Shown: positions 22,860 to 40,189 of the stretch, piece by piece
Position numbering within the stretch: position 1 is the stretch's first letter
Layout: every line of letters begins with the position of its first letter
From: an uncultured Candidatus Saccharibacteria bacterium
GTDB taxonomy: Bacteria > Patescibacteriota > Saccharimonadia > Saccharimonadales > JAGQNJ01
Reading direction: 5' to 3'
Assembly (NCBI GenBank): GCA_964491925.1
Contig: CAZBGZ010000002.1
Coordinates: forward strand, 49,492-113,491
DNA length: 64,000 bases
Notes under the pieces: generated by a model
Told to the model about the DNA's origin: nothing
The model's database searches: none
Seen by the model: only the letters and a program-made list of their open reading frames with translations
Made by a program: the position numbers and the translations under genes

Positions 22860-22870
22860 GATGGTAAATC

Positions 22871-24365: not shown

Positions 24366-24374
24366 TGATAGACT
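24366..24374 (+). promoter_or_regulatory. extended -10 element, leaderless-type spacing
   Basis: TGATAGACT; 6 nt to ATG at 24381. Confidence 0.45.
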
Positions 24375-24380
24375 AGTTCT

Positions 24381-25049
24381 ATGGGTTTATTCACTAGGCG
24401 AACATCAGAGGAGATGGGACAACCGTATTATGAAATCACCAGCAACCCTCAGACTGGTTCTTCTTTGGTATCGAAAAATACAGTGCTTCTAGTAGGCCTG
24501 GGCAACGTTGGCAAAAAATACGACGGAACACGTCACAATATTGGTTTCGAGTGTATTGATGCGTTCGTAGAGGGGCAGGGATTCCCAGCCTGGACAGAAA
24601 AAAAGAACCTAAAATGCCTGGTTACAAAACACACAGTCGGCAAACTGCAGATTATTGCTATCAAACCGACAACCTATATGAACGAAAGTGGGCAAGCAGT
24701 TACTGCGGTTCAGCGGTTTTTCAAAGTTAATAATGCATGCACTATAGTAATCCACGATGATATCGATGTAGCTTTTGGCCAAATCCGTACCAGGATTGGT
24801 GGTGGATCTGCCGGAAATAACGGGATAAAATCATTGATAGCGCACATCGGTGAAGATTTTGGACGAATCCGTATCGGGGTGAAAAATAATCTATTAGAAA
24901 AAATGGGTAGTGCCGATTTTGTGTTGGCTAAATTCAACAAAGAAGAACAATCACAGATGATAAAACTAAAAAGGGAAGTATCAGCACTAATCAGCGAATA
25001 TACCGCTAGTGGCGAGCTACCACACGACACCCGCAACTTCCTACTTTAA
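24381..25049 (+). CDS. pth: peptidyl-tRNA hydrolase
   Basis: 222 aa; LLVGLGNVGKKYDGTRHNIGF signature after a ~30-aa N-terminal extension. Confidence 0.9.
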   Translation: MGLFTRRTSEEMGQPYYEITSNPQTGSSLVSKNTVLLVGLGNVGKKYDGTRHNIGFECIDAFVEGQGFPAWTEKKNLKCLVTKHTVGKLQIIAIKPTTYMNESGQAVTAVQRFFKVNNACTIVIHDDIDVAFGQIRTRIGGGSAGNNGIKSLIAHIGEDFGRIRIGVKNNLLEKMGSADFVLAKFNKEEQSQMIKLKREVSALISEYTASGELPHDTRNFLL

Positions 25050-25056
25050 AAATACG

Positions 25057-25644
25057 TCACAATTTAATTGGTAATTTTAGGCTTCGTCCTCTGAAATCAA
25101 GCATTCTAAGCAACCGCTTGCCGTTACTTCTGCCAGCATGATGCACCATATCATAATGCACTCTTCGCTGATTAACTTTTCTCAAACCCTGGCGCAGAAA
25201 TATTACATCGCGCGGCCCGTATTCCCATAGTAAATGTGGCTCAACGTTAACACTTCCATCTTCCTCTAACAAAAAAGGTTGATTAGACGCTGCAAAAAAC
25301 GCTTTTTCCCCAAAAACTGGTATAACTAATGTTATCCCCTCGGGGCATTCCTCATCTTGATGAGATGAAAGAAGGAATCGAGAATCTTCCGCTGATTTAT
25401 ACCGAAATGCAGCGCCTAACATCATGCGAGAACGACCGTTGGGTTCAATATCCTTACGAACTATTTCCAACTCCGGTAGCACAGCAAGTATCCCTTGCGG
25501 GCTCATTGTCTCTAATCCCTGTTCAGCCAGAGTTTTTATTGAGTCTTCTGTAATCATTCCTGCGACCTTTGCCGCGCCTTGAATAACGCAAGCTTCCAGC
25601 ACTTCAGGACTATATTCATTAAATTGTGTCGAGAATGTGATCAT
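25057..25644 (-). CDS. hypothetical protein
   Basis: 195-aa ORF. Contains SHQD...HH (HxD...H-like) residues, but no family was recognised. Confidence 0.5.
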   Translation of the reverse strand: MITFSTQFNEYSPEVLEACVIQGAAKVAGMITEDSIKTLAEQGLETMSPQGILAVLPELEIVRKDIEPNGRSRMMLGAAFRYKSAEDSRFLLSSHQDEECPEGITLVIPVFGEKAFFAASNQPFLLEEDGSVNVEPHLLWEYGPRDVIFLRQGLRKVNQRRVHYDMVHHAGRSNGKRLLRMLDFRGRSLKLPIKL

Positions 25645-25787
25645 TGAAACTTTTACCCATTATAACTGAAAAGAGCATACAGAGGGTTAGAAGTGTTATT
25701 GTAGCACTTCGCAAGGAAATTTTTCTATGACAACTTGTTATGGAAATCGTGGAATTTCGTGGTCACTCAAGCATGACTCTGGGCACT

Positions 25788-25827
25788 AAAAAGAGCCTCC
25801 AGAGGGGGTGGGCACCGCTGGAAGCTC
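25788..25827 (-). terminator. intrinsic terminator of the 25.8-26.2 kb RNA unit
   Basis: Minus strand GAGCTTCCAG, 15-nt loop, CTGGAGGCTC (10 bp with one G-U), followed by TTTTT (25792-25788). Confidence 0.6.
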
Positions 25828-26196
25828 ATTTCAGAGGACAAAGCTTGCGCCTTGTCCCCAATACCCTTCAACCCACCCCAGCGAAACATCAGCGCTAAAC
25901 GAATAGTAAAAGCCTGTGTCTGTTGCCCGTAAACGGGAAGCAATCATTTAGACTCGCTTTGAATTGGGGCCTTTTCAGTGTTTACGAGAAACCGCTGAAA
26001 AAGGTTGCTAGTTAAAGGGGTTAGTCTGTTTTAGAGCGTAGCCGTGTTCACGGCAGTGCTTTCAATAGTGGAGGGTAACAACTAGAAGGAAGCGCGCTCT
26101 AAAACAATCTAACTATTAACCCTGGATAACCCAAGGTAATGCTAGAATAGGGGGTATAAGGTACGATAAGCTTTAATAAATTAAAACTTACAGGTT
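25788..26196 (-). ncRNA. unclassified ~400-nt highly structured RNA (promoter-to-terminator unit lacking a long ORF)
   Basis: No ORF of 60 aa or more in any frame across 25645-26260. A strong promoter and a terminator bracket about 405 nt. Stems seen by eye are 26020-26038/26095-26113 (19 bp, 2 mismatches), 25970-25978/25995-26004, 25926-25937 and 25836-25857. Confidence 0.5.
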
Positions 26197-26199
26197 GCC

Positions 26200-26228
26200 A
26201 TTTTATCAAAAACATTTCATTATGTCAA
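26200..26228 (-). promoter_or_regulatory. near-consensus sigma70 promoter TTGACA-17-TGaTAAAAT
   Basis: Minus strand TATTGACATAATGAAATGTTTTTGATAAAATGGCAACC. -35 at 26228-26223, exact 17-nt spacer, extended -10 at 26208-26200. Confidence 0.6.
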
Positions 26229-26260
26229 TACTAAAATAGATAGTTGATTAAATAACAAAA

Positions 26261-27118
26261 ATGATTCAAAAACATAAACATAAGCAAATTCCGGTTCCTG
26301 GTATTCTGACCTCTGTTCCAGATGCCCCAGAAACGTTATTTTGTATAGGTGACACTCTGGATTATTTGCTCAAAAAACCGCGCATTGCCATTGTTGGATC
26401 GCGGAAAATGACCACCTATGGCCGTGGTATTACAGAGAAATTTTCTAGCGAATTAGCAGGCAAGGGTGTGGTGATAGTCAGTGGACTAGCATACGGAGTA
26501 GATGCTTGCGCACACCAAGCGGCTACTGATGCTGGCGGGGAGTGTATAGCGGTCTTAGCCTGTGGCTTAGAACAGATGTATCCCGCTGCAAACAGACTGC
26601 TGGCCAACAAACTAGTTGAAAGGGGTGGTGTGATTGTCTCCGAATACCCTAAAGGCACCGAGCCGCTAAGGCACCGTTTTTTAGAGAGAAATAGGATTAT
26701 TTCGGGGCTTGCTGATGCGGTGCTAATAACAGAGGCTGCCGAGCGCAGTGGAAGCCTAAATACCGCAGGCCACGCACTGAACCAAGGCAAACCAGTCCTG
26801 TGTGTACCAGGTAATATAACTAGCCCTTTGTCAGGCGGAACAAATAATTTGATTAAAAGTGGCGCTCACCTAGTTACTGACATTGACGACATTCTATCGA
26901 TTCTAGGACTCGACAAATCAAACCAGAGCACTATGCCCATAGCCCTAAACCAGGAAGAATTTATTTTATTGTCCCTGTTAAAAGACGGTGTTTCTGATGG
27001 CTCTGAATTAGCATGTAAAAGTGAGCTAAGCGCATCTATGTTCAACCAAACTCTAACTATGCTAGAAATCGAAGGTAAAATAAAACCTCTCGGCAACAAC
27101 CACTGGGCCATCCACTAG
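26261..27118 (+). CDS. dprA: DNA-processing protein DprA
   Basis: 285 aa; IAIVGSRKMTTYG...VSGLAYGVDACAH...RNRIISGL Rossmann-like DprA core. Confidence 0.9.
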   Translation: MIQKHKHKQIPVPGILTSVPDAPETLFCIGDTLDYLLKKPRIAIVGSRKMTTYGRGITEKFSSELAGKGVVIVSGLAYGVDACAHQAATDAGGECIAVLACGLEQMYPAANRLLANKLVERGGVIVSEYPKGTEPLRHRFLERNRIISGLADAVLITEAAERSGSLNTAGHALNQGKPVLCVPGNITSPLSGGTNNLIKSGAHLVTDIDDILSILGLDKSNQSTMPIALNQEEFILLSLLKDGVSDGSELACKSELSASMFNQTLTMLEIEGKIKPLGNNHWAIH

Positions 27119-27143
27119 CAACCTTGCTTTTTATACTTATGGT

Positions 27144-27152
27144 TGTTATAAT
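27144..27152 (+). promoter_or_regulatory. extended -10 element, leaderless-type spacing
   Basis: TGTTATAAT; 9 nt to ATG at 27162. Confidence 0.5.
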
Positions 27153-27161
27153 ATACAAATT

Positions 27162-28055
27162 ATGGTAAACAGAGAAGCTGACTTCCACCAGAACGGATTA
27201 GCGTCACCTATAATAGTTGCGGTTGATAATGGCGGAACAAATACCAGAATTGAAGCGTGCATCGGTGGCGAGCCGATGGCTAGCCATACATATGCGACAC
27301 CAACAGACTACTACAGCGCAATCACAGCTGTCGACCATACCATTCGCCAGCTCACAGGTGGGGTGCCCGTGGATGCAATTGGCTTCGCAGTTGCGGGGAA
27401 AGTTGAAGATGGAGTAATTACAAGCGCAGGGGAACTTCAAGACTATGGCTGGTGCCAACTTCCTTTTCAAAATGATGTTGCTGCAGCCCTAAATATTGAA
27501 CCTTCTAAGGTAAGGCTACTAAACGATTGTGTAGCTGCAGCAAAAGGACAAAGCGTTGACAGCATAAAAAGTGGTGAAGCCACAACAGCATTTGTCGAAA
27601 CAATAAGTACCGGATTCGGTGGAGCTGGTTTTGATGGCGACCGTTTAATCCCTGATGAACCAGGGCATGAGTTTTACAAGGATGGCGCAACTTGTGGTTG
27701 CGGAAGCATCGGTTGTGCAGAGGCTCATATTAGTGGTAGCGGGATCGAGCGGAAATACGGTATCCGAGCCGAAGATTTACCCGATGAAGTATGGGGTGAA
27801 GTAGTAAGGGACGCGGTTAATATACACGTAGATCTGCTAAACAGGCTCCATCAGGGTGGGCTAACCCCCGAAGTGGTTTATGTTTTTGGCAGTGTTGGCC
27901 TAAAATCTAGGCTAATGCTCCCTGGTATTACAGCGGGACTAATTGAAAATAGAGATAGATTATCCTTCCTACCTCTAGTAAAGAGAGCGACTCATGGTGA
28001 TGATAGTGGGTTAGTTGGTGCCCGCGAAGCAGCAAAAGAACTAGTTACAATATAA
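27162..28055 (+). CDS. ROK-family sugar kinase-like protein
   Basis: 297 aa; VAVDNGGTNTR ATP-binding start and CGCGSIGCAEAHISG zinc-binding ROK motif. Confidence 0.75.
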   Translation: MVNREADFHQNGLASPIIVAVDNGGTNTRIEACIGGEPMASHTYATPTDYYSAITAVDHTIRQLTGGVPVDAIGFAVAGKVEDGVITSAGELQDYGWCQLPFQNDVAAALNIEPSKVRLLNDCVAAAKGQSVDSIKSGEATTAFVETISTGFGGAGFDGDRLIPDEPGHEFYKDGATCGCGSIGCAEAHISGSGIERKYGIRAEDLPDEVWGEVVRDAVNIHVDLLNRLHQGGLTPEVVYVFGSVGLKSRLMLPGITAGLIENRDRLSFLPLVKRATHGDDSGLVGAREAAKELVTI

Positions 28056-28138
28056 ACCCGCTATTTGCTTTTTATATTTGCAAGATGTACTATCCTTGCT
28101 TGTATTAATAAGAAGGTTGCTCTAGCATAAGCAAGTAC

Positions 28139-30427
28139 ATGGCAAAAAATTTAGTAATAGTAGAGAGCCCGGCAAAAGCCAAAACGATCGAGAAATATCT
28201 GGGTAGTGACTTCACGGTCAAAAGCAGCATGGGTCATATCCGTGCACTACCTAGTAAAAACGGCAGCATAGATGTAGATAACAACTTCAAACCTGTGTTC
28301 GAGGTAGATCCCGGCAAACGAAAAATCATATCAGAGCTAAAAAAAGCCAGCAAAGCTGCCGATGCAGTCTGGCTAGCAAGCGATGAAGACCGCGAAGGGG
28401 AGGCAATAGCTTGGCATTTGGCAGAAGTACTTGGCTTGGACCAAAAGACCACCAAACGAATTGTTTTTCATGAAATAACCAAATCAGCCCTGGACAAAGC
28501 CGTTAAAAACCCTGGCGCAATAGACGACAAACTGGTCCAGGCCCAACAGGCCAGGCAAGCCCTAGACTATCTAGTAGGTTTCGAACTAAGCCCTGTTCTA
28601 TGGCGCAAAGTCGGACCAAAGCTTAGTGCAGGAAGAGTACAATCTGTGGCCGTAAGGTTAGTAGTAGAGCGTGAACGCGAAATAAAAGACCACGCCCCAG
28701 AATCTACATTCAAACTACGGGCAACCTTCAAATTGACTGACGGCACAGAGCTAATCGCTGATGCTCCAACAAAGTTCAAAGACAATGCAAGCGTTAAAAA
28801 AGTCCTGGAAGCATTTGCCCAAAGTGACTTTAAAATTGCCAATATCAGTAAAAAACCTGGTTCGCGTAGTCCCTCGGCGCCATTTACCACCAGCACCTTG
28901 CAACAAGAAGCCAGCAGCAAGCTCGGCTATAGCCCACGTAGCACTATGCAATTGGCACAGCGTCTATATGAAGCAGGATTAATAACCTATATGCGTACTG
29001 ACTCAGTTAATCTGTCCAATACTGCTCTTGGCGCTATGACTAATTTTATAAAGAAAGAATACGGCGAGAATTACCACCAATTTCGCACATTCAAGTCAAA
29101 AAGCAGCAACGCTCAGGAAGCTCACGAAGCCATCCGCCCAACAGATGTCAGTAAGCCTAAGGCAGGTGCTGACGCTCAACAAGAGAAACTATATAACCTT
29201 ATCTGGCGCCGAGCATTATCTAGCCAAATGGCGCCGGCAAAATTAGAGAAAACAACTATTAGTATTGACGTCAGCAAAAGCGACGAAGTACTAGAAGCAA
29301 AAGGCGAAGTGGTAATATTTGATGGTTTCTTGAAGGTTTACGGCCGATCTGGTGATGATACTCTTCTACCGCCCGTTAAGGCTGGCGAAAAGCTAGTCTT
29401 GGTCCAGGCCGAAGCGACCGAGAATCTCAGCAGGGCAGCAGCACGATACACCGAGGCAACCTTGGTCCGTAAACTAGAAGAAATGGGTATAGGACGGCCT
29501 AGTACCTATGCACCGACAATCGGCACTATTCAGGCACGTGAATATGTGGAGCGGGCAGATGTAGAAGGTGAGGAACGCCAAATCCAAAAACTAGTTTTGA
29601 GACAGGGTAAGCTTACCGAATCTAAAGAGCCCTTTATGTACGGCAAAGACTCTAACAAACTCGTGCCCACGGATACCGGCTTGGTTGTGACTGACTTTTT
29701 GGTCAAACATTTTAGTGGCGTGATGAATTATGATTTCACCAAAGAGATCGAAGAAGAGCTTGATGATATTGCTGAAGGGGAAAAAGACCGCGTAACGGTA
29801 CTGAAGCATTTCTATGGGCCATTCCACAAATTAGTCGAGGACAGCGCTGATATCACCCGGAAAGAGGCTAGTCAGGCCCGTTTGGTTGGCCTAGACCCTA
29901 ACGGAAAACAGCCAATTTACGCCCGTTTTGGCAAATATGGCCCGATGCTCCAGCGCGGCGAGCAGTCTGATGACCCAAAACCGACTTTTGCACCAATGCC
30001 GGCAGGCAAAAAGCTAGATGACGTTACTCTAGACGAGGCGCTGAAGATGTTTGCCCTGCCAAGAACCGTAGGAAAAACAGAAAAAGGCGAAGAAATCGTC
30101 GCAAACATCGGACGGTTTGGACCATATGTCAAAGTCGGTAGCGTTTTTGTGTCTATAAAACCACATGATCCATTCACAATCGACGAAGTCACAGCCAAAC
30201 AGCTTTATAAAGAAAAGCTAGACGCTGAAAAGAAAAAGAACATCAAAGCATTCGACAGTGGTATAAAGGTTATCAATGGACCATTCGGGCCATATATTAC
30301 TGACGGAAAAAAGAATGCCAAAATCCCAAAGGATTTGAAACCAGAAGATATTGAAGAAGAGCAGGCCAAAAAGATTCTAGACGAAGCTCCAGCCCGCAAA
30401 AAACGAGTCATCCGCCGTAAAAAGTAA
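28139..30427 (+). CDS. topA: DNA topoisomerase I
   Basis: 762 aa; N-terminal Toprim LVIVESPAKAKTIEKYLG, DEDREGEAI, ITYMRTDS active-site Tyr region, Lys-rich C-terminus. Confidence 0.95.
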   Translation: MAKNLVIVESPAKAKTIEKYLGSDFTVKSSMGHIRALPSKNGSIDVDNNFKPVFEVDPGKRKIISELKKASKAADAVWLASDEDREGEAIAWHLAEVLGLDQKTTKRIVFHEITKSALDKAVKNPGAIDDKLVQAQQARQALDYLVGFELSPVLWRKVGPKLSAGRVQSVAVRLVVEREREIKDHAPESTFKLRATFKLTDGTELIADAPTKFKDNASVKKVLEAFAQSDFKIANISKKPGSRSPSAPFTTSTLQQEASSKLGYSPRSTMQLAQRLYEAGLITYMRTDSVNLSNTALGAMTNFIKKEYGENYHQFRTFKSKSSNAQEAHEAIRPTDVSKPKAGADAQQEKLYNLIWRRALSSQMAPAKLEKTTISIDVSKSDEVLEAKGEVVIFDGFLKVYGRSGDDTLLPPVKAGEKLVLVQAEATENLSRAAARYTEATLVRKLEEMGIGRPSTYAPTIGTIQAREYVERADVEGEERQIQKLVLRQGKLTESKEPFMYGKDSNKLVPTDTGLVVTDFLVKHFSGVMNYDFTKEIEEELDDIAEGEKDRVTVLKHFYGPFHKLVEDSADITRKEASQARLVGLDPNGKQPIYARFGKYGPMLQRGEQSDDPKPTFAPMPAGKKLDDVTLDEALKMFALPRTVGKTEKGEEIVANIGRFGPYVKVGSVFVSIKPHDPFTIDEVTAKQLYKEKLDAEKKKNIKAFDSGIKVINGPFGPYITDGKKNAKIPKDLKPEDIEEEQAKKILDEAPARKKRVIRRKK

Positions 30428-30487
30428 AATTCTGGATATCAGACACTGAACGCTATATTCTAGAATATTGTTTTATGCGTATTTTTA

Positions 30488-30496
30488 TGCTATAAT
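30488..30496 (+). promoter_or_regulatory. extended -10 element, leaderless-type spacing
   Basis: TGCTATAAT; 6 nt to ATG at 30503. Confidence 0.5.
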
Positions 30497-30502
30497 ATAA
30501 TA

Positions 30503-31129
30503 ATGAACTTGGTAGAAGTAGAAGATTTTGGTATTGAATCTGCATGCAACCCAGATCAACTGTACGGACTTTTAAAAAGGCAGCTTTCAGGGGAATTACC
30601 AGTATTCATTGATGATTGTGGTGGGGATTCAACTGAATCGCTCGATAGGTTCACTGATGTTGCGAATGCCCTGGGCATTGAACAAAGGGCTACATATACT
30701 ATTTGGATTGGGCACGAACTATATGGTGAGCCTCAGTTTCACCAACCCAACACCAGTGAGTATGGTCGTTTTTCCGATCAAGATAGGTCATGGCATGTGG
30801 ATGGTACAAATATTGCAGAAGCCGGGCCCAGATTGCCATTTTATTTTGACATGATTAGTGGACGAGTCGAAGTAACTTTTATACCGATACTGCCCAGGAA
30901 TAAACAAACAGCCCAGTGGGATGGGAATGTCATACAAGAATATGAATCAGGATTAATAAAGGTTGATACAAGAGTTTTATTACCAGTCGCATATCAAACA
31001 GCGCTGGGAATTGGTCAAAGACTTTCGTTCTTAGCGTTGGGGGATGACAGAACTTTGCATAAATTTCATTCGTTAACAACTGAAAGAAAATCAACTAGCA
31101 CAACTTTTAAAGTATCGGCTCAACAATAA
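30503..31129 (+). CDS. hypothetical protein (WHVDG HxD-type motif; possible cupin/dioxygenase-like fold)
   Basis: 208-aa ORF; only SWHVDGT...LHKFHS noted. Confidence 0.45.
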   Translation: MNLVEVEDFGIESACNPDQLYGLLKRQLSGELPVFIDDCGGDSTESLDRFTDVANALGIEQRATYTIWIGHELYGEPQFHQPNTSEYGRFSDQDRSWHVDGTNIAEAGPRLPFYFDMISGRVEVTFIPILPRNKQTAQWDGNVIQEYESGLIKVDTRVLLPVAYQTALGIGQRLSFLALGDDRTLHKFHSLTTERKSTSTTFKVSAQQ

Positions 31130-31235
31130 CTACTCTATTTAAACCCGCGCGTAGAGCAAGATAAAAAAATTCTGGCATCCAGGCATGTATAAAGTGCGTA
31201 ATTTTGAGCTTTGCAAGAAGCAATACGGTAGTAGA

Positions 31236-31244
31236 TGTTAAAAT
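31236..31244 (+). promoter_or_regulatory. extended -10 element, leaderless-type spacing
   Basis: TGTTAAAAT; 6 nt to ATG at 31251. Confidence 0.5.
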
Positions 31245-31250
31245 TTAGAC

Positions 31251-31736
31251 ATGCAGTTTGTCAGTAATGCGCCGAAAGATTATGATTGTCCTATTTGTTT
31301 AGGGTTGCAGGGCAGTGATAGCGAAAAAACTTTGCTGAGAGAAACGGATGTGGTTTATAGGGACGCTTTAGTTACCGGGTTTATTAATTCTTTCTTTATG
31401 GGGAACAATCCTGGTCATGTGATTTTGGTGACCAACAAACACTTTGAGAATATCTACGATATTCCTATCGAATACAGTCATAGGGTTATAGAGGTTGCCG
31501 GCAAGGTTGCTGTCGCTATGAAACAGGCTTACGGTTGTGACGGCATAACCACCCGGCAAAATAACGAGCCAGCCGGTGACCAGCATGCATTTCATTATCA
31601 TTTTCACATTTTCCCTCGCTATAAGGACGATGGTTTCAACAAAGTCCAGCCCTCAGATAAACGCCTAGCCCCACCAGAAGAAAGGGCAGAATATGCACAT
31701 AAGCTATCTGCAAAACTAAAAAATCCCAACTCTTAA
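31251..31736 (+). CDS. HIT-family nucleotide hydrolase/transferase
   Basis: 161 aa; histidine triad HAFHYHFHIFPR. Confidence 0.85.
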   Translation: MQFVSNAPKDYDCPICLGLQGSDSEKTLLRETDVVYRDALVTGFINSFFMGNNPGHVILVTNKHFENIYDIPIEYSHRVIEVAGKVAVAMKQAYGCDGITTRQNNEPAGDQHAFHYHFHIFPRYKDDGFNKVQPSDKRLAPPEERAEYAHKLSAKLKNPNS

Positions 31737-31783
31737 AACCCTTGTGCTTGCTTGTTTGTACTAACGGTGTATAAAAGTTAGTT

Positions 31784-32362
31784 ATGGCTGTTACTTTGCC
31801 GTCGATGGAAATTGAAACCTCTGGTGGCCCGTTGCATCAGGCCTTCCAGATTGCTGCAGAAGCCCACGGCGATCAAATGTACAGAGAAGGATGGCCCTAC
31901 ACGGATCATCTGCTAGAGGCCGCTAGACTAGCATGGGATATGGGTTACGCCAAAGAGGTGCAGGTGGCCCTATTGTTGCATGACACCCTTGAAGATACTT
32001 ATTTAACAGCCGAGAGACTTATAGGCCTAGGTGTAGCGCAAGTATGCGTAGATGGGGTTGTTGGAATGACCGCTTTTGATACCGACACAACGAAAGAAAA
32101 AATTGGTCGGGCACGTTCACACCCGTTAAGTCATATCGGAAAAGTCTGTGATAGCAGCAGTAACCTGGCGTCAACTATTCGGGCGGTGGCTTTAGAGGAA
32201 TTACCAACTATAGCAGGTGAATTTGCTCCTGACGATCCTGGCTTGAGACTCCACAGAATTCACAAATATTCGACCTATTTGGGGTTGCTCGAACCAGGCC
32301 TGCCGTCCCCAGGAGATATCCGTCAATGGTTGGACCAGCAACCCCCAGAACACAGGTTATAA
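31784..32362 (+). CDS. HD-domain protein resembling RelA/SpoT-type (p)ppGpp hydrolase domains
   Basis: 192 aa; AHGDQMYREGWPYTDHLLE...ALLHDTLEDT matches the H...HD...D pattern of the SpoT hydrolase/HD_4 type. Confidence 0.65.
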   Translation: MAVTLPSMEIETSGGPLHQAFQIAAEAHGDQMYREGWPYTDHLLEAARLAWDMGYAKEVQVALLLHDTLEDTYLTAERLIGLGVAQVCVDGVVGMTAFDTDTTKEKIGRARSHPLSHIGKVCDSSSNLASTIRAVALEELPTIAGEFAPDDPGLRLHRIHKYSTYLGLLEPGLPSPGDIRQWLDQQPPEHRL

Positions 32363-32379
32363 ATGCTAGAGTCGAACAA

Positions 32380-32649
32380 ATGCCGTACCTAATTGACACA
32401 AGTGAGCTTGAGGCACGTGCAGCAACCCTTGCTGTCATTGAAAGTAGCCTGGGCCCAGAACTTGATGCATGCGAGACTATACTCGCAGACCTTTCTCTTA
32501 TGGCTGAGCGTGCCATGGGTGGCATCATGTGCGGAGTTAGTGCTGCGCAACTGGTTGGGTTGTCCAGCGGCGAGGACTTAGTAGGCGATATAATACCAAC
32601 CAGGGGAAACTCTTTCGTGGGGGGTATTTGGCGACAAAATCTGTGGTGA
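32380..32649 (+). CDS. hypothetical small protein
   Basis: The track ORF begins at 32326 inside the HD gene. ATG 32380 (MPYLIDTSEL), 17 nt after the HD stop, is preferred. Confidence 0.4.
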   Translation: MPYLIDTSELEARAATLAVIESSLGPELDACETILADLSLMAERAMGGIMCGVSAAQLVGLSSGEDLVGDIIPTRGNSFVGGIWRQNLW

Positions 32650-32864
32650 CGCCCGATGTAGTATATACCGAGATAGCGGATGTATCTGCTGGAGGATCAC
32701 CAGTCCCGTCTTTGATATTTAGACCTGTGGAGCTCGACGAGTTAACAGAGTTTGTCCGCAGTTACTTTCCTGGGCATACCGTAAACTATCCCGCAATTGG
32801 GGTACCACTAGTCGGCAACCTCATCTCGGTCAAAAGGCTCCAGCCAAACATCATGATGCCATAG
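32628..32864 (+). CDS. hypothetical small protein, translationally coupled
   Basis: Track start is TTG 32628. GTG 32646 overlaps the upstream TGA (GTGA), suggesting coupling. Confidence 0.35.
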   Translation: MATKSVVTPDVVYTEIADVSAGGSPVPSLIFRPVELDELTEFVRSYFPGHTVNYPAIGVPLVGNLISVKRLQPNIMMP

Positions 32865-32873
32865 TGTTAGAAT
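32865..32873 (+). promoter_or_regulatory. extended -10 element, leaderless-type spacing
   Basis: TGTTAGAAT; 9 nt to ATG at 32883. Confidence 0.45.
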
Positions 32874-32882
32874 TAGTTTAAT

Positions 32883-33308
32883 ATGAAAGTTCTATTTGTA
32901 TGTGATCATAATCGCGGACGTAGCCAGATGGCAGCAGCCTTTTATAACAAATTTACGACTGCTGGGAGTGCTGATTCTGCAGGCACAACAGTCCTAACGC
33001 CGGGACAAACTATTGAACAGCGCGCCGAAGTTTCTGAAGGGTCAAAACATCTTTTGACCACAATGGATAACGAAGGCCTTGATATAAGGCAACGGGTCCA
33101 ACAGCCAATAAACCAGGGCATGATTGATAATTACGACTTGGTTATAGTTATGGCCGAGGAAAAATCTATACCAGACTACGTCAAAAACAGCGTTAAGTAT
33201 AAATTCTGGCAAGTCGAAGACCCACAGTCTAAAGGCCCAGAAAAAACAGAAGAAGTAAAGAATATAATCAAACAAAAGGTCCAAAACCTTATCAGACTTA
33301 AAGGCTAA
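32883..33308 (+). CDS. low-molecular-weight phosphotyrosine phosphatase / ArsC-type arsenate reductase family
   Basis: 141 aa; VLFVCDHNRGRSQMA = CX5R(S) P-loop at the N-terminus. Confidence 0.8.
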   Translation: MKVLFVCDHNRGRSQMAAAFYNKFTTAGSADSAGTTVLTPGQTIEQRAEVSEGSKHLLTTMDNEGLDIRQRVQQPINQGMIDNYDLVIVMAEEKSIPDYVKNSVKYKFWQVEDPQSKGPEKTEEVKNIIKQKVQNLIRLKG

Positions 33309-33345
33309 GGCCCCCGATAAAAAAACTAGATCCAATTGAGTACGC

Positions 33346-33374
33346 TTGACATTGACATAATGCAGGTATATATT
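33346..33374 (+). promoter_or_regulatory. canonical sigma70 promoter TTGACA-17-TATATT
   Basis: -35 at 33346-33351, 17-nt spacer, -10 at 33369-33374, then a ~36-nt leader with GGAG (33403-33406) before ATG 33417. Confidence 0.5.
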
Positions 33375-33416
33375 GTCTTGATAGTTAACTGGTGGGCATA
33401 ATGGAGATATAGAATC

Positions 33417-33893
33417 ATGATTAAAACCATCAAACTACTCCTTGTATCAGTAATGACCTTTTTGACTTTTACTATGGCTGGCTTTTCGGTGCCTCGAGTA
33501 GCAGCAGCTGCAACCGCAGAATCATACCCAAATCGAAGAGCTAGACATATAGAGTGGCATAATCAAGGTGGACCAAAGACATCCAACAGGATTACCACAA
33601 CTCGTAGTATTGACGGCCATGGCTGGATTTGTGTTGACGCCAACTTTGATGATGGCCCATTTGATGTCTTGACGCGTTATCACTGGTACATAGAGGAATA
33701 TGTTCCTGGAAGAGGTTGGGTCGAACAGCGACAATCAACAGAGTACAACGCGAATGGCAACCTGGATCATGCTTGCTACGACAATAAAATTGAAATCGGG
33801 AAAACCTACCGCGTTTTATTCGATCCCACACGCTCCACTTACATGGAAGGCACTTTCCACGTTTACGGCTATTTCATAAACTATCCGAATTAG
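33417..33893 (+). CDS. small secreted two-cysteine protein, paralog B
   Basis: 158 aa; signal peptide ending AAAATA. Core GWICVD...YHWYIEE...GW...ANGNLDHAC...LFD aligns with 17939..18445. Confidence 0.6.
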   Translation: MIKTIKLLLVSVMTFLTFTMAGFSVPRVAAAATAESYPNRRARHIEWHNQGGPKTSNRITTTRSIDGHGWICVDANFDDGPFDVLTRYHWYIEEYVPGRGWVEQRQSTEYNANGNLDHACYDNKIEIGKTYRVLFDPTRSTYMEGTFHVYGYFINYPN

Positions 33894-33957
33894 TCGACTG
33901 AAATATTAAATAAACTATTTTTTCCCATTATTATAAATTAATACATGCATACATAGT

Positions 33958-33966
33958 TGCTACAAT
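33958..33966 (+). promoter_or_regulatory. extended -10 element, leaderless-type spacing
   Basis: TGCTACAAT; 9 nt to ATG at 33976. Confidence 0.5.
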
Positions 33967-33975
33967 GTAGGGTAT

Positions 33976-34881
33976 ATGAAAAAAATTGTTGTTACACAAT
34001 TGATGGAATTTACACCAGAGCAATCTGATCGCATCAATAAACTAGGTGAGGTTGTTGAATATAAACAGCTGGCAAAAAGTCACGAAGAATGGCTAGATCG
34101 AGTTAAGGACGCCGACGTAATCTGCACGGGAAAGTTCGGTTTTAAACAAAAATGGCAAGAACTACACAATACTTTTGTGTCTCTACCATTTGTCGGGGTA
34201 GGCTTTTTGGATCCTGCCGTTTTAAAGCAGAACAACGTCATTGTCTCGCGTAGCCCCGGGTGCAACCGTCATGCAGTATCTGAATGGATTATTGCCATGA
34301 TATTGGTTATGACACGCAGATTAGATACCTATATTAATGTAGCATCAATGCCCACAGGAGAACTCCCACCTAATGATTTCGGCTTGTTCGAAAAAAACAT
34401 TACTATTCTCGGCAAAGGATTTATTGGCATCCGCGTTGGAGAGATAGCCAGCGTGCTAGGAATGAATGTTACCTATTTCACCAGAGACAACGACCTAATA
34501 AAATCAGTCAAAAATGCAGACATTATTGTTAACACCCTTAGCCATAACTCTTCGACGGAAAATATTTTGAACCAAGAGTTTTTCAATTCATTAAGAAAAA
34601 ACAGTTATTTTGTCACTGTTACGTCTTATGAAATATTCGATCAAAAAGCACTGTTTAATGCTCTCGACTCAGGTATATTAGCTGGTGCAGCAGTTGACTG
34701 TGCCAGTGCTCAAGTAGGTAGTAGTGATAGTCCAGACTACAAAGTCATGAAAAACCATTCGAAGGTACTGGCTACTCCACATATAGCAGCTTTTACAGAT
34801 GTGGCCGAAAGAATTAGAAACGACATGATGATAGAAAACATCGAAGCCTGGCTGAACGACAAACCACAAAACATTGTATGA
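33976..34881 (+). CDS. D-isomer-specific 2-hydroxyacid dehydrogenase family
   Basis: 301 aa; NAD-binding ILGKGFIGIRVG, catalytic-region ATPHIAAFT. Confidence 0.8.
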   Translation: MKKIVVTQLMEFTPEQSDRINKLGEVVEYKQLAKSHEEWLDRVKDADVICTGKFGFKQKWQELHNTFVSLPFVGVGFLDPAVLKQNNVIVSRSPGCNRHAVSEWIIAMILVMTRRLDTYINVASMPTGELPPNDFGLFEKNITILGKGFIGIRVGEIASVLGMNVTYFTRDNDLIKSVKNADIIVNTLSHNSSTENILNQEFFNSLRKNSYFVTVTSYEIFDQKALFNALDSGILAGAAVDCASAQVGSSDSPDYKVMKNHSKVLATPHIAAFTDVAERIRNDMMIENIEAWLNDKPQNIV

Positions 34882-35423
34882 AAAGTTTAGAAATAGTTGA
34901 GTTTGGGGATCCGATACTTCGTAAAACCGCCAAAAAGATATCTGTTTCTACTATCAAGTCGGCTGAATTTCAAAACCTAATTCGTGATATTCGTACCTTT
35001 TTGCTGAATGAAAAATTGGGTGTGGGGCTGGCAGCGCCGCAAGTCGGGGAGGGCCTAGCGCTGTCCGTTATCGCTATCAGGCCGACAGAGCACCGACCGA
35101 CAGTAAAAGAATTCGATCTAATCATTATCAATCCAAGCTACAAGGGGCTAGGGGATAAGAAAGAAATGTGGGAAGGATGTATCAGTTCTGGTGCCGGGCA
35201 AGCTGGACTTTTCGCAAAAGTGCCACGTTATAAGAAAGTAGAAGCAACATTTTGGGATGAGAATGGGCAAAAACAAACGAAACAGTTTTCAGGACTACCA
35301 GCACAGGTAATACAGCACGAAACAGATCATCTGAACGGAGTATTATTCGTAGACAAAGTAGCTGACACTAAAACGTTTATGACGATGAGCGAATACCGCA
35401 AACAGATCACGCCCAAAAAATAA
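34878..35423 (+). CDS. def: peptide deformylase
   Basis: 181 aa; GVGLAAPQVG, EGCIS, HETDHLNG motifs; ATGA overlap with the upstream gene. Confidence 0.92.
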   Translation: MKSLEIVEFGDPILRKTAKKISVSTIKSAEFQNLIRDIRTFLLNEKLGVGLAAPQVGEGLALSVIAIRPTEHRPTVKEFDLIIINPSYKGLGDKKEMWEGCISSGAGQAGLFAKVPRYKKVEATFWDENGQKQTKQFSGLPAQVIQHETDHLNGVLFVDKVADTKTFMTMSEYRKQITPKK

Positions 35424-35424
35424 C

Positions 35425-35433
35425 TGATACAAT
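35425..35433 (+). promoter_or_regulatory. extended -10 element, leaderless-type spacing
   Basis: TGATACAAT; 7 nt to ATG at 35441. Confidence 0.45.
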
Positions 35434-35440
35434 TAGTTAT

Positions 35441-36481
35441 ATGAAAAAGTTTGTTGAATTGCCAAAACTTAAAGCGGGAGATCAAGTTGCAGTTATCTCT
35501 CCATCCGCCGGACTGCCTGGACTTTTCCCATGGGTCCAAGACTTGGGGATAAAAAGACTAGAAGAAGTATTTGGCCTAAAAGCAAAAGAATACTCAACCA
35601 CGAGGCAAATGGGGTCTTCATTGCAAGGCAGGGCAAACGATATTCATGCTGCATTTTCTGACCCAAACAACAAAGCAGTTATCACCTCGATTGGCGGGGA
35701 GGACCAGATCAAATTGCTTAAATATCTAGATCCGGAGATTTTTTTAAAAAATCCCAAACCATTCTTTGGCTTTAGCGATAACACGCACCTGAGTAACTTT
35801 TTATGGAACCTGGGGATTCCTTCATATTACGGCGGTGCAATAATGACACAGTTTGCTATGCAGGGCAAAATGCACGATCTGACTGTCGAGTTTCTAAAAC
35901 ACGCCTTATTTAATAATGGAGAGTACGAACTAAAATCCGCTACCGAATATAACGACATTGGGCTTGATTGGGCCGACAAAGCATCACTGTCAAAGAAACG
36001 AATCATGGAGTCTAATGAAGGACTGTTTTGGAACGGAGACCAAAGCTCTGAAGGCATACTGTGGGGTGGTTGTGTTGAATTACTCATACAGCAAGCGTTA
36101 GTTGGTAAATATCTGCCAAAAAATGAAGAACTAGAGGGCAGTATATTGTTCATAGAAACCGCCGAAGATATTCCTGAGCTTTGGCTAGTCGAGTCCTTGC
36201 TAGTAGGTTTTGGTGAGCGCGGCTGGTTTGATAAATTTCAGGCGGTTCTGGTGGGTAGACCTAAAGCATGGGACTTCGCGAAACAAAACAGCGCAGAGCA
36301 GAAAGCAAACTATCGACAACAGCAACGCTCAATAGTAGTAAAAACGGTCCGTACATACAATAAAACCATTCCAATAGTGCAGAATCTAGACTTCGGGCAC
36401 ACAGACCCGCAGATTGCACTACCGGTTGGTAATCATGTCAGAATTGACCCATCGATGAGAAAAATATTCCTAACTTACTGA
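35441..36481 (+). CDS. LD-carboxypeptidase (peptidase S66; LdcA/MccF-like)
   Basis: 346 aa; LKAGDQVAVISPSAG N-terminus, GFSDNTHL nucleophile-Ser motif, C-terminal E...H region. Confidence 0.78.
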   Translation: MKKFVELPKLKAGDQVAVISPSAGLPGLFPWVQDLGIKRLEEVFGLKAKEYSTTRQMGSSLQGRANDIHAAFSDPNNKAVITSIGGEDQIKLLKYLDPEIFLKNPKPFFGFSDNTHLSNFLWNLGIPSYYGGAIMTQFAMQGKMHDLTVEFLKHALFNNGEYELKSATEYNDIGLDWADKASLSKKRIMESNEGLFWNGDQSSEGILWGGCVELLIQQALVGKYLPKNEELEGSILFIETAEDIPELWLVESLLVGFGERGWFDKFQAVLVGRPKAWDFAKQNSAEQKANYRQQQRSIVVKTVRTYNKTIPIVQNLDFGHTDPQIALPVGNHVRIDPSMRKIFLTY

Positions 36482-36550
36482 TAATTCGTGCCAGCAAAGA
36501 GGTATCGTTTTACTTTTGGTGATATAATATATGTAGAAAGTGGGGTGTTT

Positions 36551-36808
36551 ATGAGCAGAGAATATGCTGAAGAAGAAGCGCGAAAAATTGGCGAAGAAAT
36601 TGGAGTAGATTTTGAAAAATTCTCTCTGAGCGAGTTTCGACGCGGCCTAGAGGTGGAGATGGAGCATGGTTCACTGTGGGGCGACGAAACTAATGTAACA
36701 AAGGACGATCCGCATTTTACTGGCAAGATAGCTTGGGCTCACCTGAAAGAAATACCAGATTATTACACGCGCCTGGGCAAAATGGAAGCCGAGGCAGAAG
36801 GCAAATAG
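36551..36808 (+). CDS. DUF5661-like small protein
   Basis: Start moved to ATG 36551 (MSREYAEEEA). EFRRGLEVEMEHG...TNVTKDD...KIAWAHLKEIPDYYTRL matches my memory of DUF5661. TGATATAAT at 36520-36528. Confidence 0.55.
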   Translation: MSREYAEEEARKIGEEIGVDFEKFSLSEFRRGLEVEMEHGSLWGDETNVTKDDPHFTGKIAWAHLKEIPDYYTRLGKMEAEAEGK

Positions 36809-36918
36809 TTTCCACAGGTTGTAATCAAGGCAAGTATATATTGTTGTAATATTCCCATGCATTTAGTGTGCAAAAACAGCCACTTTGTGCTACAATTTAT
36901 ACATAGCAAATAATATGC

Positions 36919-36947
36919 TTGACTTTTAAAACATTAAGTTTTATAAT
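36919..36947 (+). promoter_or_regulatory. canonical sigma70 promoter TTGACT-17-TATAAT
   Basis: -35 at 36919-36924, exact 17-nt spacer, -10 at 36942-36947. A second upstream element TGCTACAAT lies at 36888-36896. ~40-nt leader with AAAGG. Confidence 0.5.
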
Positions 36948-36993
36948 TACATGTATCAGGTGGTTTTGATAAGCTAAGCAAAGGTAAAAATCA

Positions 36994-38034
36994 ATGGCAG
37001 AGCAAGCAACAACAAATCTAGACATCGAAAAACTGGTAAACAATATTGTCGGTGTTATCGAAAAAGAACGCGAACGTGAAATAGTATCTAGGCGTTTTGG
37101 CCTAAATGACCGCAAAGAAACCTTAGAACAGATAGGGGAATTGTTGGGCATTACCCGTGAGCGTGTCCGTCAGTTAGAAAAAGCAGTTGTTGCCCGCCTT
37201 AAAGCTCGTGCCGAAAAAGGTGACTTGCCAAACATTACAGAGATAGAAAATGTGCTGTTTCAGAATGTTACATCAATGGGCGGGGCAGCAAGAATTAGTA
37301 ATCTTTCAGCTAAACTGACTAAAGATAACAGCCGCATCGATCAGGCTCGTGTATCTTTTCTAACAAAGCTTTGCCCAAAACTGACCGTTCTAGACGAAAA
37401 TGACTTTTATTTCCAAGGTGTTGCCTTGGCATCAAACTTCAAAGAAGCCCAGCTAAAGAGCAGGGTAGAGGCCGTTATAAGTGCTATCAAAACCATTGGC
37501 GAACCAACTAGCATCCAAAAAATTGCCACAGAGGACGGGAAGGGGACGCCAGAAGAAGTAGCAGCTATTGCCAGTCTTTCAAAACAACTTGCGACCCTAA
37601 ACAACCGATGGGGACTTATTAAGTGGCCTATGGTCAACCCAAAGAACATTAGAGACAAAATATACATAATTTTAGTTGAAAACGGCAAACACATGCACTT
37701 TTCAGAGATCTCTGCAGCCATCAAAAAGTCAGAATTCCGCCGAAAAGACGTCACAACCCAAGCTATTCATAACGAACTTATCAAAGACAAGCGATTCGTC
37801 CTTGTGGGCCGCGGTATCTACGCCCTAAAAGAGTGGGGATACAAAAAGGGAACTGTCGCCGATGTTATAACAGAAGTGTTAAAAAAGGCAGGCGAGCCAC
37901 TACACCGCGACGAAATCGTCAAACGCGTACTAAAAGACCGTTACGTTAAAGAAACAACCATTCTTTTAAACCTACAGGGCAAACCACAGTTCAAACGAGT
38001 AGCAAAAGCTACCTACGCTCTAGCCGACGCCTAA
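36994..38034 (+). CDS. sigma-70 region-4 HTH protein with two C-terminal HARE-HTH-like domains
   Basis: 346 aa; RRFGLNDRKETLEQIGELLGITRERVRQLEKAVVARLK (r4). Later HFSEISAAI...FVLVGRGIYALKEWGY and EPLHRDEIVKRV...ATYALA winged-helix repeats. Confidence 0.65.
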   Translation: MAEQATTNLDIEKLVNNIVGVIEKEREREIVSRRFGLNDRKETLEQIGELLGITRERVRQLEKAVVARLKARAEKGDLPNITEIENVLFQNVTSMGGAARISNLSAKLTKDNSRIDQARVSFLTKLCPKLTVLDENDFYFQGVALASNFKEAQLKSRVEAVISAIKTIGEPTSIQKIATEDGKGTPEEVAAIASLSKQLATLNNRWGLIKWPMVNPKNIRDKIYIILVENGKHMHFSEISAAIKKSEFRRKDVTTQAIHNELIKDKRFVLVGRGIYALKEWGYKKGTVADVITEVLKKAGEPLHRDEIVKRVLKDRYVKETTILLNLQGKPQFKRVAKATYALADA

Positions 38035-38050
38035 TCTCACAAACAAACCC

Positions 38051-38623
38051 ATGCAACGAATTTTTCACGGCGATCGTAGTGTGGAGCTAGCCACATTTGA
38101 CTGGTACCTAGACCGTGTCATTGATAGTCGTTCTGCTATTCAAGAAATTGGAGAGATCCGCCCCTCAGACAAAACCTTTGTACGTACACTCTCATTGCGT
38201 ACTGAAAGAACACAATTTGCCAGTCTTGCCGAGCTACTAATCACTGCTGACGATGAATTTGCTAAAGTTGCTAGTGCCTGTGGTTCTACTGTCATCAGCC
38301 ATGCCTGGGGCACTGTGCTCCCCCCAATTGATATAGCGATGGGTGGCGTGACCACAGGGGTAATGTTTGCCAATCGTGAGCAAATGGGCAAATTTCACCC
38401 CTTGCTTCCAAAAGCTCAGTATCTAGCAGTTAAAATGCCTATAATTGATATTACAGGCGATCCTACGGTTCCGCTTGATCACAAATCCCAGACAGCTTAT
38501 AAACGCGAAGGCGGACCTCTATGGCAAGCCGAACTTGCTGTATCGCAGTGCATTGAAGGGGTTGACCGCGTAAGCGGTATTCTGGACACCTATTGGGTTG
38601 ACCTAGAGCCAGTCTTTGACTAA
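38051..38623 (+). CDS. hypothetical protein
   Basis: 190-aa ORF, last + strand gene before the convergence gap. Confidence 0.45.
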   Translation: MQRIFHGDRSVELATFDWYLDRVIDSRSAIQEIGEIRPSDKTFVRTLSLRTERTQFASLAELLITADDEFAKVASACGSTVISHAWGTVLPPIDIAMGGVTTGVMFANREQMGKFHPLLPKAQYLAVKMPIIDITGDPTVPLDHKSQTAYKREGGPLWQAELAVSQCIEGVDRVSGILDTYWVDLEPVFD

Positions 38624-38805
38624 AATTAAACAGAACATTTTGCGAACATGAATATGTGCGTGGACTCCGGGTAGTGGAAGCTATTATTTATAGATAACGT
38701 AACATCACAAAGACAACAGGCAACCTAAAACTAGATCTAAAATTTAGCAAAAATAATGAGACAAACAGTGAAGTAGAGAGAGCAGTACAAAAAGATATAG
38801 ATACT

Positions 38806-38833
38806 ATGTCGCACAATGTATATTTTGCGACGT
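38806..38833. other. dif-like Xer recombination site candidate
   Basis: TATGTCGCACAA-TGTATA-TTTTGCGACGT. Arms are a near-perfect inverted repeat (GTCGCAcAA / TTtTGCGAC). The 18-nt core CGCACAATGTATATTTTG matches E. coli dif CGCATAATGTATATTATG at 16/18 (dif recalled from memory). Confidence 0.35.
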
Positions 38834-39277
38834 TCTATTATTATAGATAGATGATTAACCATACCTCGCCTAACAGGGGAGTTTTTGCGTTTTTGGCACA
38901 TTGGATTGTTTTTGATGATAGTTCGCTCTCAGCATGCTCTTAGAGTTATATAGCTCTTTGTATGCCTGCGTGCGTGTGACTATACTCACATATCCACTAA
39001 TAGTTTTCCACAACAATAAATTTGCTTTTTCACTATTTTGAGTCTATTGTTATGTTTTTTACTATGTTCCCTGCACTTGTGATCATTTCACGAAAATTTG
39101 ACATTTCACGTTTTCGATATTGTTTATATGTTTTTTCAAAACAGCTTATCGTTTTAAAACGTGAACAAAATAAGAACTAGAGGGGTAGAGTAGGAAGAAT
39201 CTATGTATACCCGTAAACCAACTACTACGCAATATTTAGACTCGCGGGCCTGCTAATTTTTAACGTCAAAAAAATTA

Positions 39278-40189
39278 CTATTTGAAATAAACTCTCTCCT
39301 CTACCCTAACGTCGATATATTGTTTTGGAATCTGTTTCTTATTTTCTAGCTCGCTGTTTACTGCCAAAAAAGCTCCAATTTGCTGCACGGGATCAGAAGT
39401 CACGGAGAACTTTATATAATAGGGCTTTTTGTCAATGAATACATGCAACTCATTGGCATAATCAGGAAGTTCCATGTGGCTAACATTAATGTTTTTCTGC
39501 CCCAGCTGATACATAACTGTTTGGATAAAATCTATGCTTGATGTAGTCATAGCTTGCGTGCCTGGCCGCAAATGCAATCCTGAAGTATCAGACACCTTTA
39601 TTAGTCTGCGTGATGAACTCTTTGGCAATTCCTCGTCAGATACAACAGCCCTCCCCTTTTCATCAATAACAAATGATTCTTTGTTGGAAGTTAAAATGCA
39701 AACCGGTTCGGCGATTTTGAAATAAACACTAGGCTTTCGGCCAATTATGGGTAGTGTTACTGCAACAGTAGTAATTTCTGGGAACTCTTGACTCATAGCC
39801 TCTTCCAAGCCGGAAGTGTTAAGTGTTAGTTTGTTTTTATTCATAATAGATCCGCTCAGCCATCGATTGGCGTATCCTATGTACTCTGTTTTGGGCCGCA
39901 GAGGTACAGAGGCCGATCCCAGAGTTTTTTCGTTCACTATCACTACTCTTGACTGATTTCCCAGTGTTGTAGCATAGCCTAGACATAGAATTATTGTAAT
40001 AACAGCTAAATAGCCTGGCATTCTTGATACAAAAGAGGCTTTTTCTTCATTTTGGCTTCTTGATTCTGCTTGAGGCTGTTTTTTGCTTTTGTAGTATGAA
40101 AATACTGCCCTATTTCGAGAAGGCTGTCCAAATACTTCTCTCGAGTCAGAGATGGTATTTTTGTTTTTTTTACCGCCAAATAACTTCAT
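39278..40189 (-). CDS. ftsQ: FtsQ/DivIB-like cell-division protein (TM + POTRA-like)
   Basis: 303 aa; cytoplasmic basic N-terminus, one TM, beta-rich ectodomain; positioned directly after murG. Confidence 0.6.
   Translation of the reverse strand: MKLFGGKKNKNTISDSREVFGQPSRNRAVFSYYKSKKQPQAESRSQNEEKASFVSRMPGYLAVITIILCLGYATTLGNQSRVVIVNEKTLGSASVPLRPKTEYIGYANRWLSGSIMNKNKLTLNTSGLEEAMSQEFPEITTVAVTLPIIGRKPSVYFKIAEPVCILTSNKESFVIDEKGRAVVSDEELPKSSSRRLIKVSDTSGLHLRPGTQAMTTSSIDFIQTVMYQLGQKNINVSHMELPDYANELHVFIDKKPYYIKFSVTSDPVQQIGAFLAVNSELENKKQIPKQYIDVRVEERVYFK

Follow-up and report, generated by a model that had tools for sequence, protein, structure and literature searches.

A 24-bp near-palindrome in the genome of an uncultured Candidatus Saccharibacteria bacterium is probably the dif site of its chromosome, a target of Xer tyrosine recombinases with a role in resolving chromosome dimers; that it is a site-specific recombination site can be said with greater confidence still. 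The analysis covered a stretch of 64,000 nucleotides of one contig (the window), in which the core of the motif, GTCGCACAA-TGTATA-TTTTGCGAC, occupies positions 38808–38831 inside a 654-bp gap between converging genes (38624–39277). A first-pass annotation had proposed a dif-like site here from the letters alone, and the proposal is now backed by syntenic conservation of the motif, by an arm and centre of the XerC type, by linkage of the same arms to an Xer gene in Clostridia, and by an inovirus inserted at the site in another Saccharibacteria contig. In the proposed reaction, one Xer monomer would sit on each arm, on GTCGCACAA and, on the other strand, on GTCGCAAAA; strands would be exchanged across the TGTATA centre, and two copies on a dimeric chromosome would recombine to give monomers at cell division. 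The recombinase is presumably encoded elsewhere in the genome, with either one recombinase or two acting on the site, and the reaction would be under the control of FtsK. The literature searched yielded no account of dif or Xer, either for Saccharibacteria or for bacteria of the Candidate Phyla Radiation (CPR).

Anatomy and conservation of the palindrome

The whole motif, TATGTCGCACAATGTATATTTTGCGACGT, covers 29 nt of the + strand (38805–38833). Its left arm (38808–38816) and right arm (38823–38831) are 9 bp long and flank the 6-bp centre TGTATA (38817–38822), with asymmetric outer bases extending the 24-bp core to a site of 28–29 bp. The arms are inverted repeats, complementary at eight of nine positions, and the arm–centre–arm layout is the one expected of dif (around 28 bp with a central region of 6–8 bp). 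The two 9-bp arms with one mismatch around TGTATA were thus described correctly in the first-pass annotation, which placed the start of this real motif one base off, at 38806 instead of 38805. Its reported likeness to the E. coli dif core was also reproduced: CGCATAATGTATATTATG and positions 38810–38827 agree at 16 of 18 positions, and no other match with up to three mismatches occurs in the window. Because 10 of 100 shuffled sequences contained at least one such match, this likeness is weak on its own. The full 24-mer behaved differently, with no second copy in the window at up to three mismatches and none in any shuffle. Checked for copy number in this way, the motif proved unique in the window, the runner-up to the core having seven mismatches, and a search of the window for a second, degenerate site of the kind that would mark an integrated element found none. 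Elsewhere, the core occurs once each in at least 120 metagenome contigs and in 24 viral contigs.

To follow the motif in relatives, we used six loci that were anchored by protein and are therefore unbiased as to the motif: the window itself and L001, L003, L124, L125 and L127. The closest genome records are metagenome-assembled genomes of Candidatus Saccharibacteria, L001 (MurG 94% identical) and L003 (46% in the locus search, 45% by tblastn); a look-up of the MurG of the window as an exact protein gave no record. In all six loci, with MurG identities of 45–94%, the core occupies the same place and differs by no more than one substitution, either G to A in the right arm or C to T in the left, and the mean column identity is 52% for the whole gap. 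The core can be written as the degenerate pattern GTCG[CT]ACAATGTATATTTT[GA]CGAC. A scan of metagenomes with the pattern TCGCANAATGTATATTNTNCGA, which biases the loci anchored by motif at the 19 fixed positions of the pattern, returned at least 120 contigs with one match each. Around 80 of the matches listed share a common synteny, in which a gene for a sigma-70 region 4/HARE protein is followed by zero to three variable genes, then by the site and, after around 400 nt without coding sequence, by the end of the division and cell wall (dcw) cluster. Alignment with relatives, a check that the first-pass annotation had put forward, therefore finds the core at a syntenic place in the six protein-anchored loci and in around 80 motif-anchored contigs.

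The two arms are not interchangeable. The C/T mismatch between them was unchanged in all 78 distinct Saccharibacteria loci, and the G..C ninth pair, which lies outside the search pattern, was likewise invariant (78 of 78). An asymmetry kept in every locus makes the site polar, not symmetric, and conserved polarity fits a recombination site bound by protein, not a hairpin or a symmetric operator.

Outside Saccharibacteria, the motif-anchored loci include four Clostridia and many phage genomes, and an initial assignment of all of these loci to other CPR chromosomes was wrong. In three more distant bacteria (L019, L105 and L109), the core stands just downstream of the dcw cluster or of an FtsQ-like gene, once in mirror orientation; the MurG proteins of L019 and L109 are 26–29% identical to that of the window. 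Its association with the dcw cluster end may thus be an old one.

Kinship to dif and use by an inovirus

The motif is akin in sequence to established and predicted dif sites. CGCACAATGTATATT is the XerC arm plus centre of the Shewanella dif, and ATGTCGCA arms are found among the dif predictions for alpha-proteobacteria (both in the supplement of PMC3025954). The dif sites of that supplement end in ATTATG followed by a tail of the TAAAT-, TAAAC- or GAAC-type; the right arm here, TTTTGCGACGT, is not an XerD-type arm of the TTATGTTAAAT kind. As in the E. coli-type dif served by XerC and XerD, the arms flank a 6-bp TGTATA centre, and the XerC-side sequence of proteobacterial dif equals the left arm and centre of the Saccharibacteria site, which is likewise present in one copy per contig, lies between convergent gene blocks and is hijacked by a filamentous phage. 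Unlike in that system, the right arm is the left arm inverted (8/9) in place of the XerD arm TTATGTTAAAT, around 570 bp of conserved elements flank the site, and no skew switch independent of gene orientation is seen at it.

Near-palindromic arms with a small fixed asymmetry are also a feature of XerS/difSL in streptococci, XerH/difH in Helicobacter and XerA in archaea, although the Saccharibacteria site is probably unlike difSL or difH in sequence. Saccharibacteria differ from single-recombinase modules of the XerS/difSL or XerH/difH type in that no recombinase gene is linked to the site. Just as difSL lies upstream of xerS, the arms of the Saccharibacteria site lie directly upstream of one Xer-family gene in Clostridia, where a recombinase gene thus adjoins the arms as it does in no Saccharibacteria locus. 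There, GTCGCAAAA-N6-TTTTGCGAC is found 31 bp to 1.3 kb upstream of the gene (L035, L066 and L129–L132). In the motif-anchored contigs L013, L017, L035 and L066, TTTTGTCGCAAAATGTATATTTTGCGACAAAA stands 31 bp from the start of the gene, relatives of which are annotated as XerC in Sedimentibacter, Tissierellia and other Clostridia. Among the contigs fetched through the Xer protein instead (L129–L132), four of four have ATGTCGCAAAA-N6-TTTTGCGACAT upstream of the gene, with TATCTA, TACAAA or TAACTA as the centre. These centres are species-specific, and arms that stay constant around a varying centre match the look of tyrosine-recombinase sites. Directly before the start of the gene there is an extra half-site, TTTTGCGAC, in L129, L131 and L132, and a full site in L130; a half-site over the promoter region of the Xer gene suggests autoregulation. 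In L129 and L066, synonymous-site skew reverses its sign at the site even among genes of the same orientation. The Clostridial gene adjoins LysM and lexA genes (L129–L132, L035 and L066), and in L132 the palindrome directly borders on phage-like genes and another half-site. The gene and its site lie at 41.9% of a record of 4.68 Mb and at 1.5% of one of 3.01 Mb, positions that are uninformative with the record starts unknown.

Use of the Saccharibacteria site by a mobile element in vivo is seen on comparing two alleles of one region. The contig L141 (IMGVR_UViG_3300025919_000034), a Saccharibacteria contig listed in IMG/VR, carries an insert of around 5.5 kb (564–6071 in the orientation used here), whereas L010 is the same region with an empty site. 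The two agree at 100% of positions from the site's first base rightward; leftward, they are identical over 563 bp plus the first 16 bases of the site. The right junction is an intact site, GTCGCACAATGTATATTTTGCGAC, and the left junction is a hybrid in which TCGCACAATGTATATT is joined to GCGATATTGCGAGA (in short form, TCGCACAATGTATATT to GCGATATTGCG). The insert has a GC content of 40.7%, against 49.6% in its flanks, and codes for a Zot/pI ATPase (PF05707, 25.8 bits against a cutoff of 20.3), a rolling-circle initiator of the G2P type (PF23343, 44.5 against 27.8) and small hydrophobic, coat-like open reading frames (ORFs), with no integrase encoded in it. The right arm of its phage attachment site (attP) is the degenerate TTGCGATAT, with 2 nt fewer than the arm of the host. 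The insert is an inovirus prophage that entered by a crossover inside the site, and its insertion, compared with the empty allele, is the behaviour of elements that exploit host Xer recombinases at dif.

The case resembles the integrative mobile elements exploiting Xer that use dif, such as CTXphi, VGJphi and TLCphi of Vibrio and other filamentous phages, in that an integrase-less inovirus of 5.5 kb sits inside the site, with one junction intact and the other a hybrid in which the centre and a single arm are retained. It differs in its CPR host, in the degeneracy and 2-nt shift of the attP right arm, and in that tailed phages carry the core too. Among the Vibrio elements, its nearest counterpart is presumably TLCphi. 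Inoviruses with CPR hosts have been reported in a paper that makes no mention of dif or XerC (PMC6813254).

Besides L141, 23 further predicted viral contigs contain the core, once each. Six that were checked have terminase genes, recognized with PHROGs in L134, L142, L143 and L149 (two of which also have a portal gene) and with Pfam in L139 and L156. In the tailed-phage contigs, the 22-bp core is intergenic and upstream of the genes for the small and large terminase subunits, and no tyrosine recombinase was found in the parts of the viral contigs that were fetched. The core in these phages could be an attP that uses the host Xer, a site for dimer resolution, or a coincidence with the packaging region.

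Replication skew, conserved flanks and other readings

A dif site is expected where replication ends, and the first-pass annotation had read the convergence of gene blocks on the motif as the picture of a replication terminus; the skew does not bear this out. Raw GC skew runs from +0.04 to +0.125 over 26–38 kb and is negative from 38 kb on, yet it is negative over 12–26 kb as well, and at 38 kb the cumulative skew merely regains its level at 1–6 kb. Four-fold-site GC skew on the coding strand, taken in the window and pooled over 66 related loci, was −0.20 (27 ORFs) and −0.35 (185 ORFs), respectively, for + strand genes left of the site, and 0.00 (9) and −0.02 (19) for − strand genes on that side. 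To the right, it was +0.07 (19) and +0.03 (158) for − strand genes and −0.37 (1) and −0.10 (10) for + strand genes. For the genes of the window, letting the sign flip at the motif left a sum of squared errors of 139.4, compared with 139.9 with no strand term at all and 97.9 for a constant + strand bias of −0.115, and the best freely placed step fell at 11–14 kb. Since four-fold sites fit a constant strand bias, the switch in raw skew is an effect of gene orientation. The + strand is C-rich at these sites on both sides of the motif (around −0.115) from 12 to 64 kb, with a value near zero left of 11–14 kb; if this bias is replicative, the block of 20 + strand genes at 19–38.6 kb is transcribed head-on to replication. 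A closed Saccharibacteria genome replicates bidirectionally from between dnaN and dnaA (PMC6031116), so a terminus exists, at which the site may lie. In three records, the site lies at 49.4% of 784,404 bp, around 387.7 kb along contig Ga0500593_000001, at 78% of 836,626 bp and 69% of 733,923 bp, with the start points of the records unknown.

Most of the 654-bp gap is conserved non-coding sequence. At its left end, around 175 bp from the site, lies box 1, GAACATTTTGCGAAC (38633–38647, + strand), and around 355 bp to the right of the site lies box 2, GAACAAAATAAGAAC (39163–39177), in the same orientation; both have the form GAAC-N7-GAAC. GAAC-N7-GAAC, a 15-bp box with the consensus GAACAWWWTACGAAC, has only these two matches in the 64 kb. 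Of the related loci, 42 of 70 have a box at −250 to −150 and 68 of 74 have one at +300 to +450, where the background frequency is 0.011 per kb, and the boxes are specific to Saccharibacteria loci and a few likely relatives. The boxes resemble the LexA box of alpha-proteobacteria, but an assignment to LexA was rejected, there being no copy near dinB or elsewhere in the window. Just after the site, a conserved ATAGATGATTAAC leads into the stem-loop ATACCTCGCC-TAACA-GGGGAG and a T run (38845–38886, + strand). In 63 of 71 loci, this stem-loop folds with an energy of −4 kcal/mol or lower, with the T run present in 10 of 71, and it could serve as a weak terminator or be bound by a protein.

A second conserved non-coding island (38995–39200, + strand) contains repeats, a tract rich in C and an AT-rich stretch, is G-rich at its end, and retains 60–77% identity in distant relatives, with neither a consensus RNA structure nor a conserved reading frame found in it. 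Its repeats, ATTTG(A)C-TTTTyCAC, number three in all (39018–39060 and 39094–39136). A match to the DnaA-box consensus, TTTTCCACA (39004–39012, + strand), is invariant in six of six protein-anchored loci, and within 600 bp of the site TTWTCCACA shows an 18-fold enrichment, at a fixed +150 to +300 on the + strand. The island is origin-like in look, yet genes converge on it. We rejected a small ORF in the gap, as its peptide MINHTSPNRGVF is seemingly conserved in close relatives while changes in loop length shift the frame in others; across genomes, the DnaA box is read in three different frames. A sigma-70 promoter was also rejected, with TAGACA-15 nt-TATATT and TTGACA-14 nt-TATATT both mis-spaced and a promoter scan no richer than in shuffles, and comparison by eye with the consensus sequences of parS, NrdR, Spo0A, ComK and Gram-positive LexA boxes gave none that fits.

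These flanks are the basis for a different reading, which we consider unlikely: the palindrome would be one part of a larger DNA–protein locus, with the GAAC boxes, the DnaA box and the iteron-like repeats, that controls replication or organizes the chromosome as a DnaA-titrating or -reactivating site, a loading site or a fork barrier, with mobile elements merely landing there. Conservation of the whole gap rather than of the core alone, the enrichment of the DnaA box at its fixed distance, the confinement of the boxes to the gap, the second island with neither RNA structure nor ORF, and the recurrence of the dcw-end linkage in the more distant lineages (L019, L105 and L109) would all suit such a locus. 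It accounts poorly for a core that has both the anatomy and the sequence of dif, that turns up without the boxes next to Xer genes, in phages and in other settings in bacteria, and that has the inovirus junction inside it. An origin is far less credible, whether a chromosomal oriC or a relic phage or plasmid origin with the palindrome as a structural element. The DnaA box, the three repeats and the AT-rich stretch do occur together, and several phage-like loci have the core between divergent gene blocks with a DnaA box nearby, but in the window genes converge on the site over 20–25 kb on each side, the raw skew passes from positive to negative, the reverse of an origin, and the origin of the closed Saccharibacteria genome lies between dnaN and dnaA (PMC6031116), neither of which is present in the window. 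The gap contains one invariant DnaA box and repeats, not the cluster of DnaA boxes with an unwinding element at a skew minimum and the divergent genes expected of an oriC.

An element acting as RNA, either a hairpin that terminates transcription bidirectionally between the convergent operons or the 5′ segment of a small RNA ending at the downstream stem-loop, is scarcely more probable than an origin. The sequence folds better than its shuffles (z = −2.2 as RNA and −3.5 as DNA), lies between convergent genes with a stem-loop 30 nt downstream, and in loci outside Saccharibacteria forms a palindrome 3–5 bp longer with several types of pair. Within Saccharibacteria, however, loop and stem are invariant and no compensatory change was found: the substitutions break pairs, G to A (24 of 78 loci) and C to T (L127) each unpairing a position, and beyond the 9-bp arms complementarity is at chance level in the 78 distinct loci. 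RNAalifold recovers the core hairpin alone, and weakly (−2.4 and −8.3); no T run follows the core, and one follows the second stem-loop in 10 of 71 loci only. Rfam returned nothing for 38000–40000 at E ≤ 1, and two tRNAs only for the whole window at the gathering score. The reading as an intrinsic terminator or structured RNA was rejected, as the core has no U tract, matched no RNA family and shows no compensation among its pairs.

Several observations also weigh against the dif assignment itself. Judged by its sequence, the right arm is not of the XerD type, so the site is no canonical XerCD dif, and a canonical dif lacks conserved flanks, whereas around 570 bp are conserved here, including a DnaA box. 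No Xer gene was found in the window or within around 10 kb of the site in any Saccharibacteria locus (around 500 kb in all), and tblastn of the window with the L035 Xer and with E. coli XerD (the latter an approximate query) gave no match. No recombinase is assigned to the insertion of the L141 inovirus, copy number is established per contig and not per genome, and there is no skew switch at the site that is independent of gene orientation.

The conserved flanking elements are ground for calling the site a variant of dif. Its closest parallels in this respect are the plasmid multimer resolution sites cer and psi, in which an Xer core is joined to accessory sequences, and attP of the lambda type, which likewise have a core flanked by conserved direct-repeat boxes and AT-rich DNA a few hundred base pairs away. 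Unlike cer and psi, the site here is chromosomal and has accessory-like DNA on both sides, with a DnaA box standing where cer and psi have sites for ArgR, PepA or ArcA. We tentatively raise the possibility that the unit of around 570 bp, conserved across the class, with its boxes, stem-loop, DnaA box, iteron-like repeats and AT-rich DNA, serves as accessory DNA that makes resolution selective, or links DnaA to termination and dimer resolution, with the core as a shared attachment site of CPR inoviruses and tailed phages. For a chromosomal dif, either role, if true, would be without precedent.

A large share of bacterial diversity, most of it uncultured, belongs to Saccharibacteria and other CPR bacteria, and the site would offer a testable case of a dif in which both arms are of the XerC type and the surrounding DNA is conserved. 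The curation and orientation of CPR genomes from metagenomes could use the 24-bp site as a positional marker, hybrid junctions at it would offer a means of recognizing integrated phages, and it is a candidate neutral integration locus for the new genetics of Saccharibacteria.

Genes around the gap

The gap has no ORF of 60 amino acids or more, as the first-pass annotation had stated, the longest inside it having 54. The annotation was also right about the two converging blocks, with one exception on each side: genes from 19056 to 38623 are on the + strand except for 25057–25644, and those from 39278 to 63868 are on the − strand except for 55037–55816. Its description of the gap as an AT-rich gene desert needs correction, as the gap is AT-rich to a slight degree only (GC content 0.407 compared with 0.41–0.46 elsewhere) and most of the 654 bp is the conserved sequence described above. 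The genes of the window are chromosomal, and a phage origin was rejected, megablast of 36–42 kb against phage records being empty.

Leftward of the gap lie der, dprA, a gene for a ROK kinase, topA, def, and genes for an LD-carboxypeptidase, a DUF5661 protein, a sigma-70 region 4/HARE-HTH protein and a 190-amino-acid protein. Rightward, on the − strand, the gene for a 303-amino-acid protein is followed by murG, ftsW, mraY, ftsI and rsmH of the dcw cluster. The 303-amino-acid gene (39278–40189), which has no family hit, is the right anchor of the locus and the last gene of the cluster, in the position of ftsQ. The left anchor, also conserved, is the sigma-70 region 4/HARE-HTH gene (36994–38034, + strand; 346 amino acids). 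Its protein is 55–87% identical across the class, is always encoded left of the site and has at least 7,996 relatives at E ≤ 1e-30, which the sources name as hypothetical protein, RNA polymerase delta subunit or DNA-binding protein.

Between this anchor and the site lies the variable 190-amino-acid gene (38051–38623, + strand), which has no family hit and is fast-diverging or replaced in relatives. Its product is only 32% identical to its counterpart in L001 (10212–10769), yet the aligned DNA of the two genomes is around 88% identical; L003 carries a different gene in its place, and more distant relatives likewise have other genes there.

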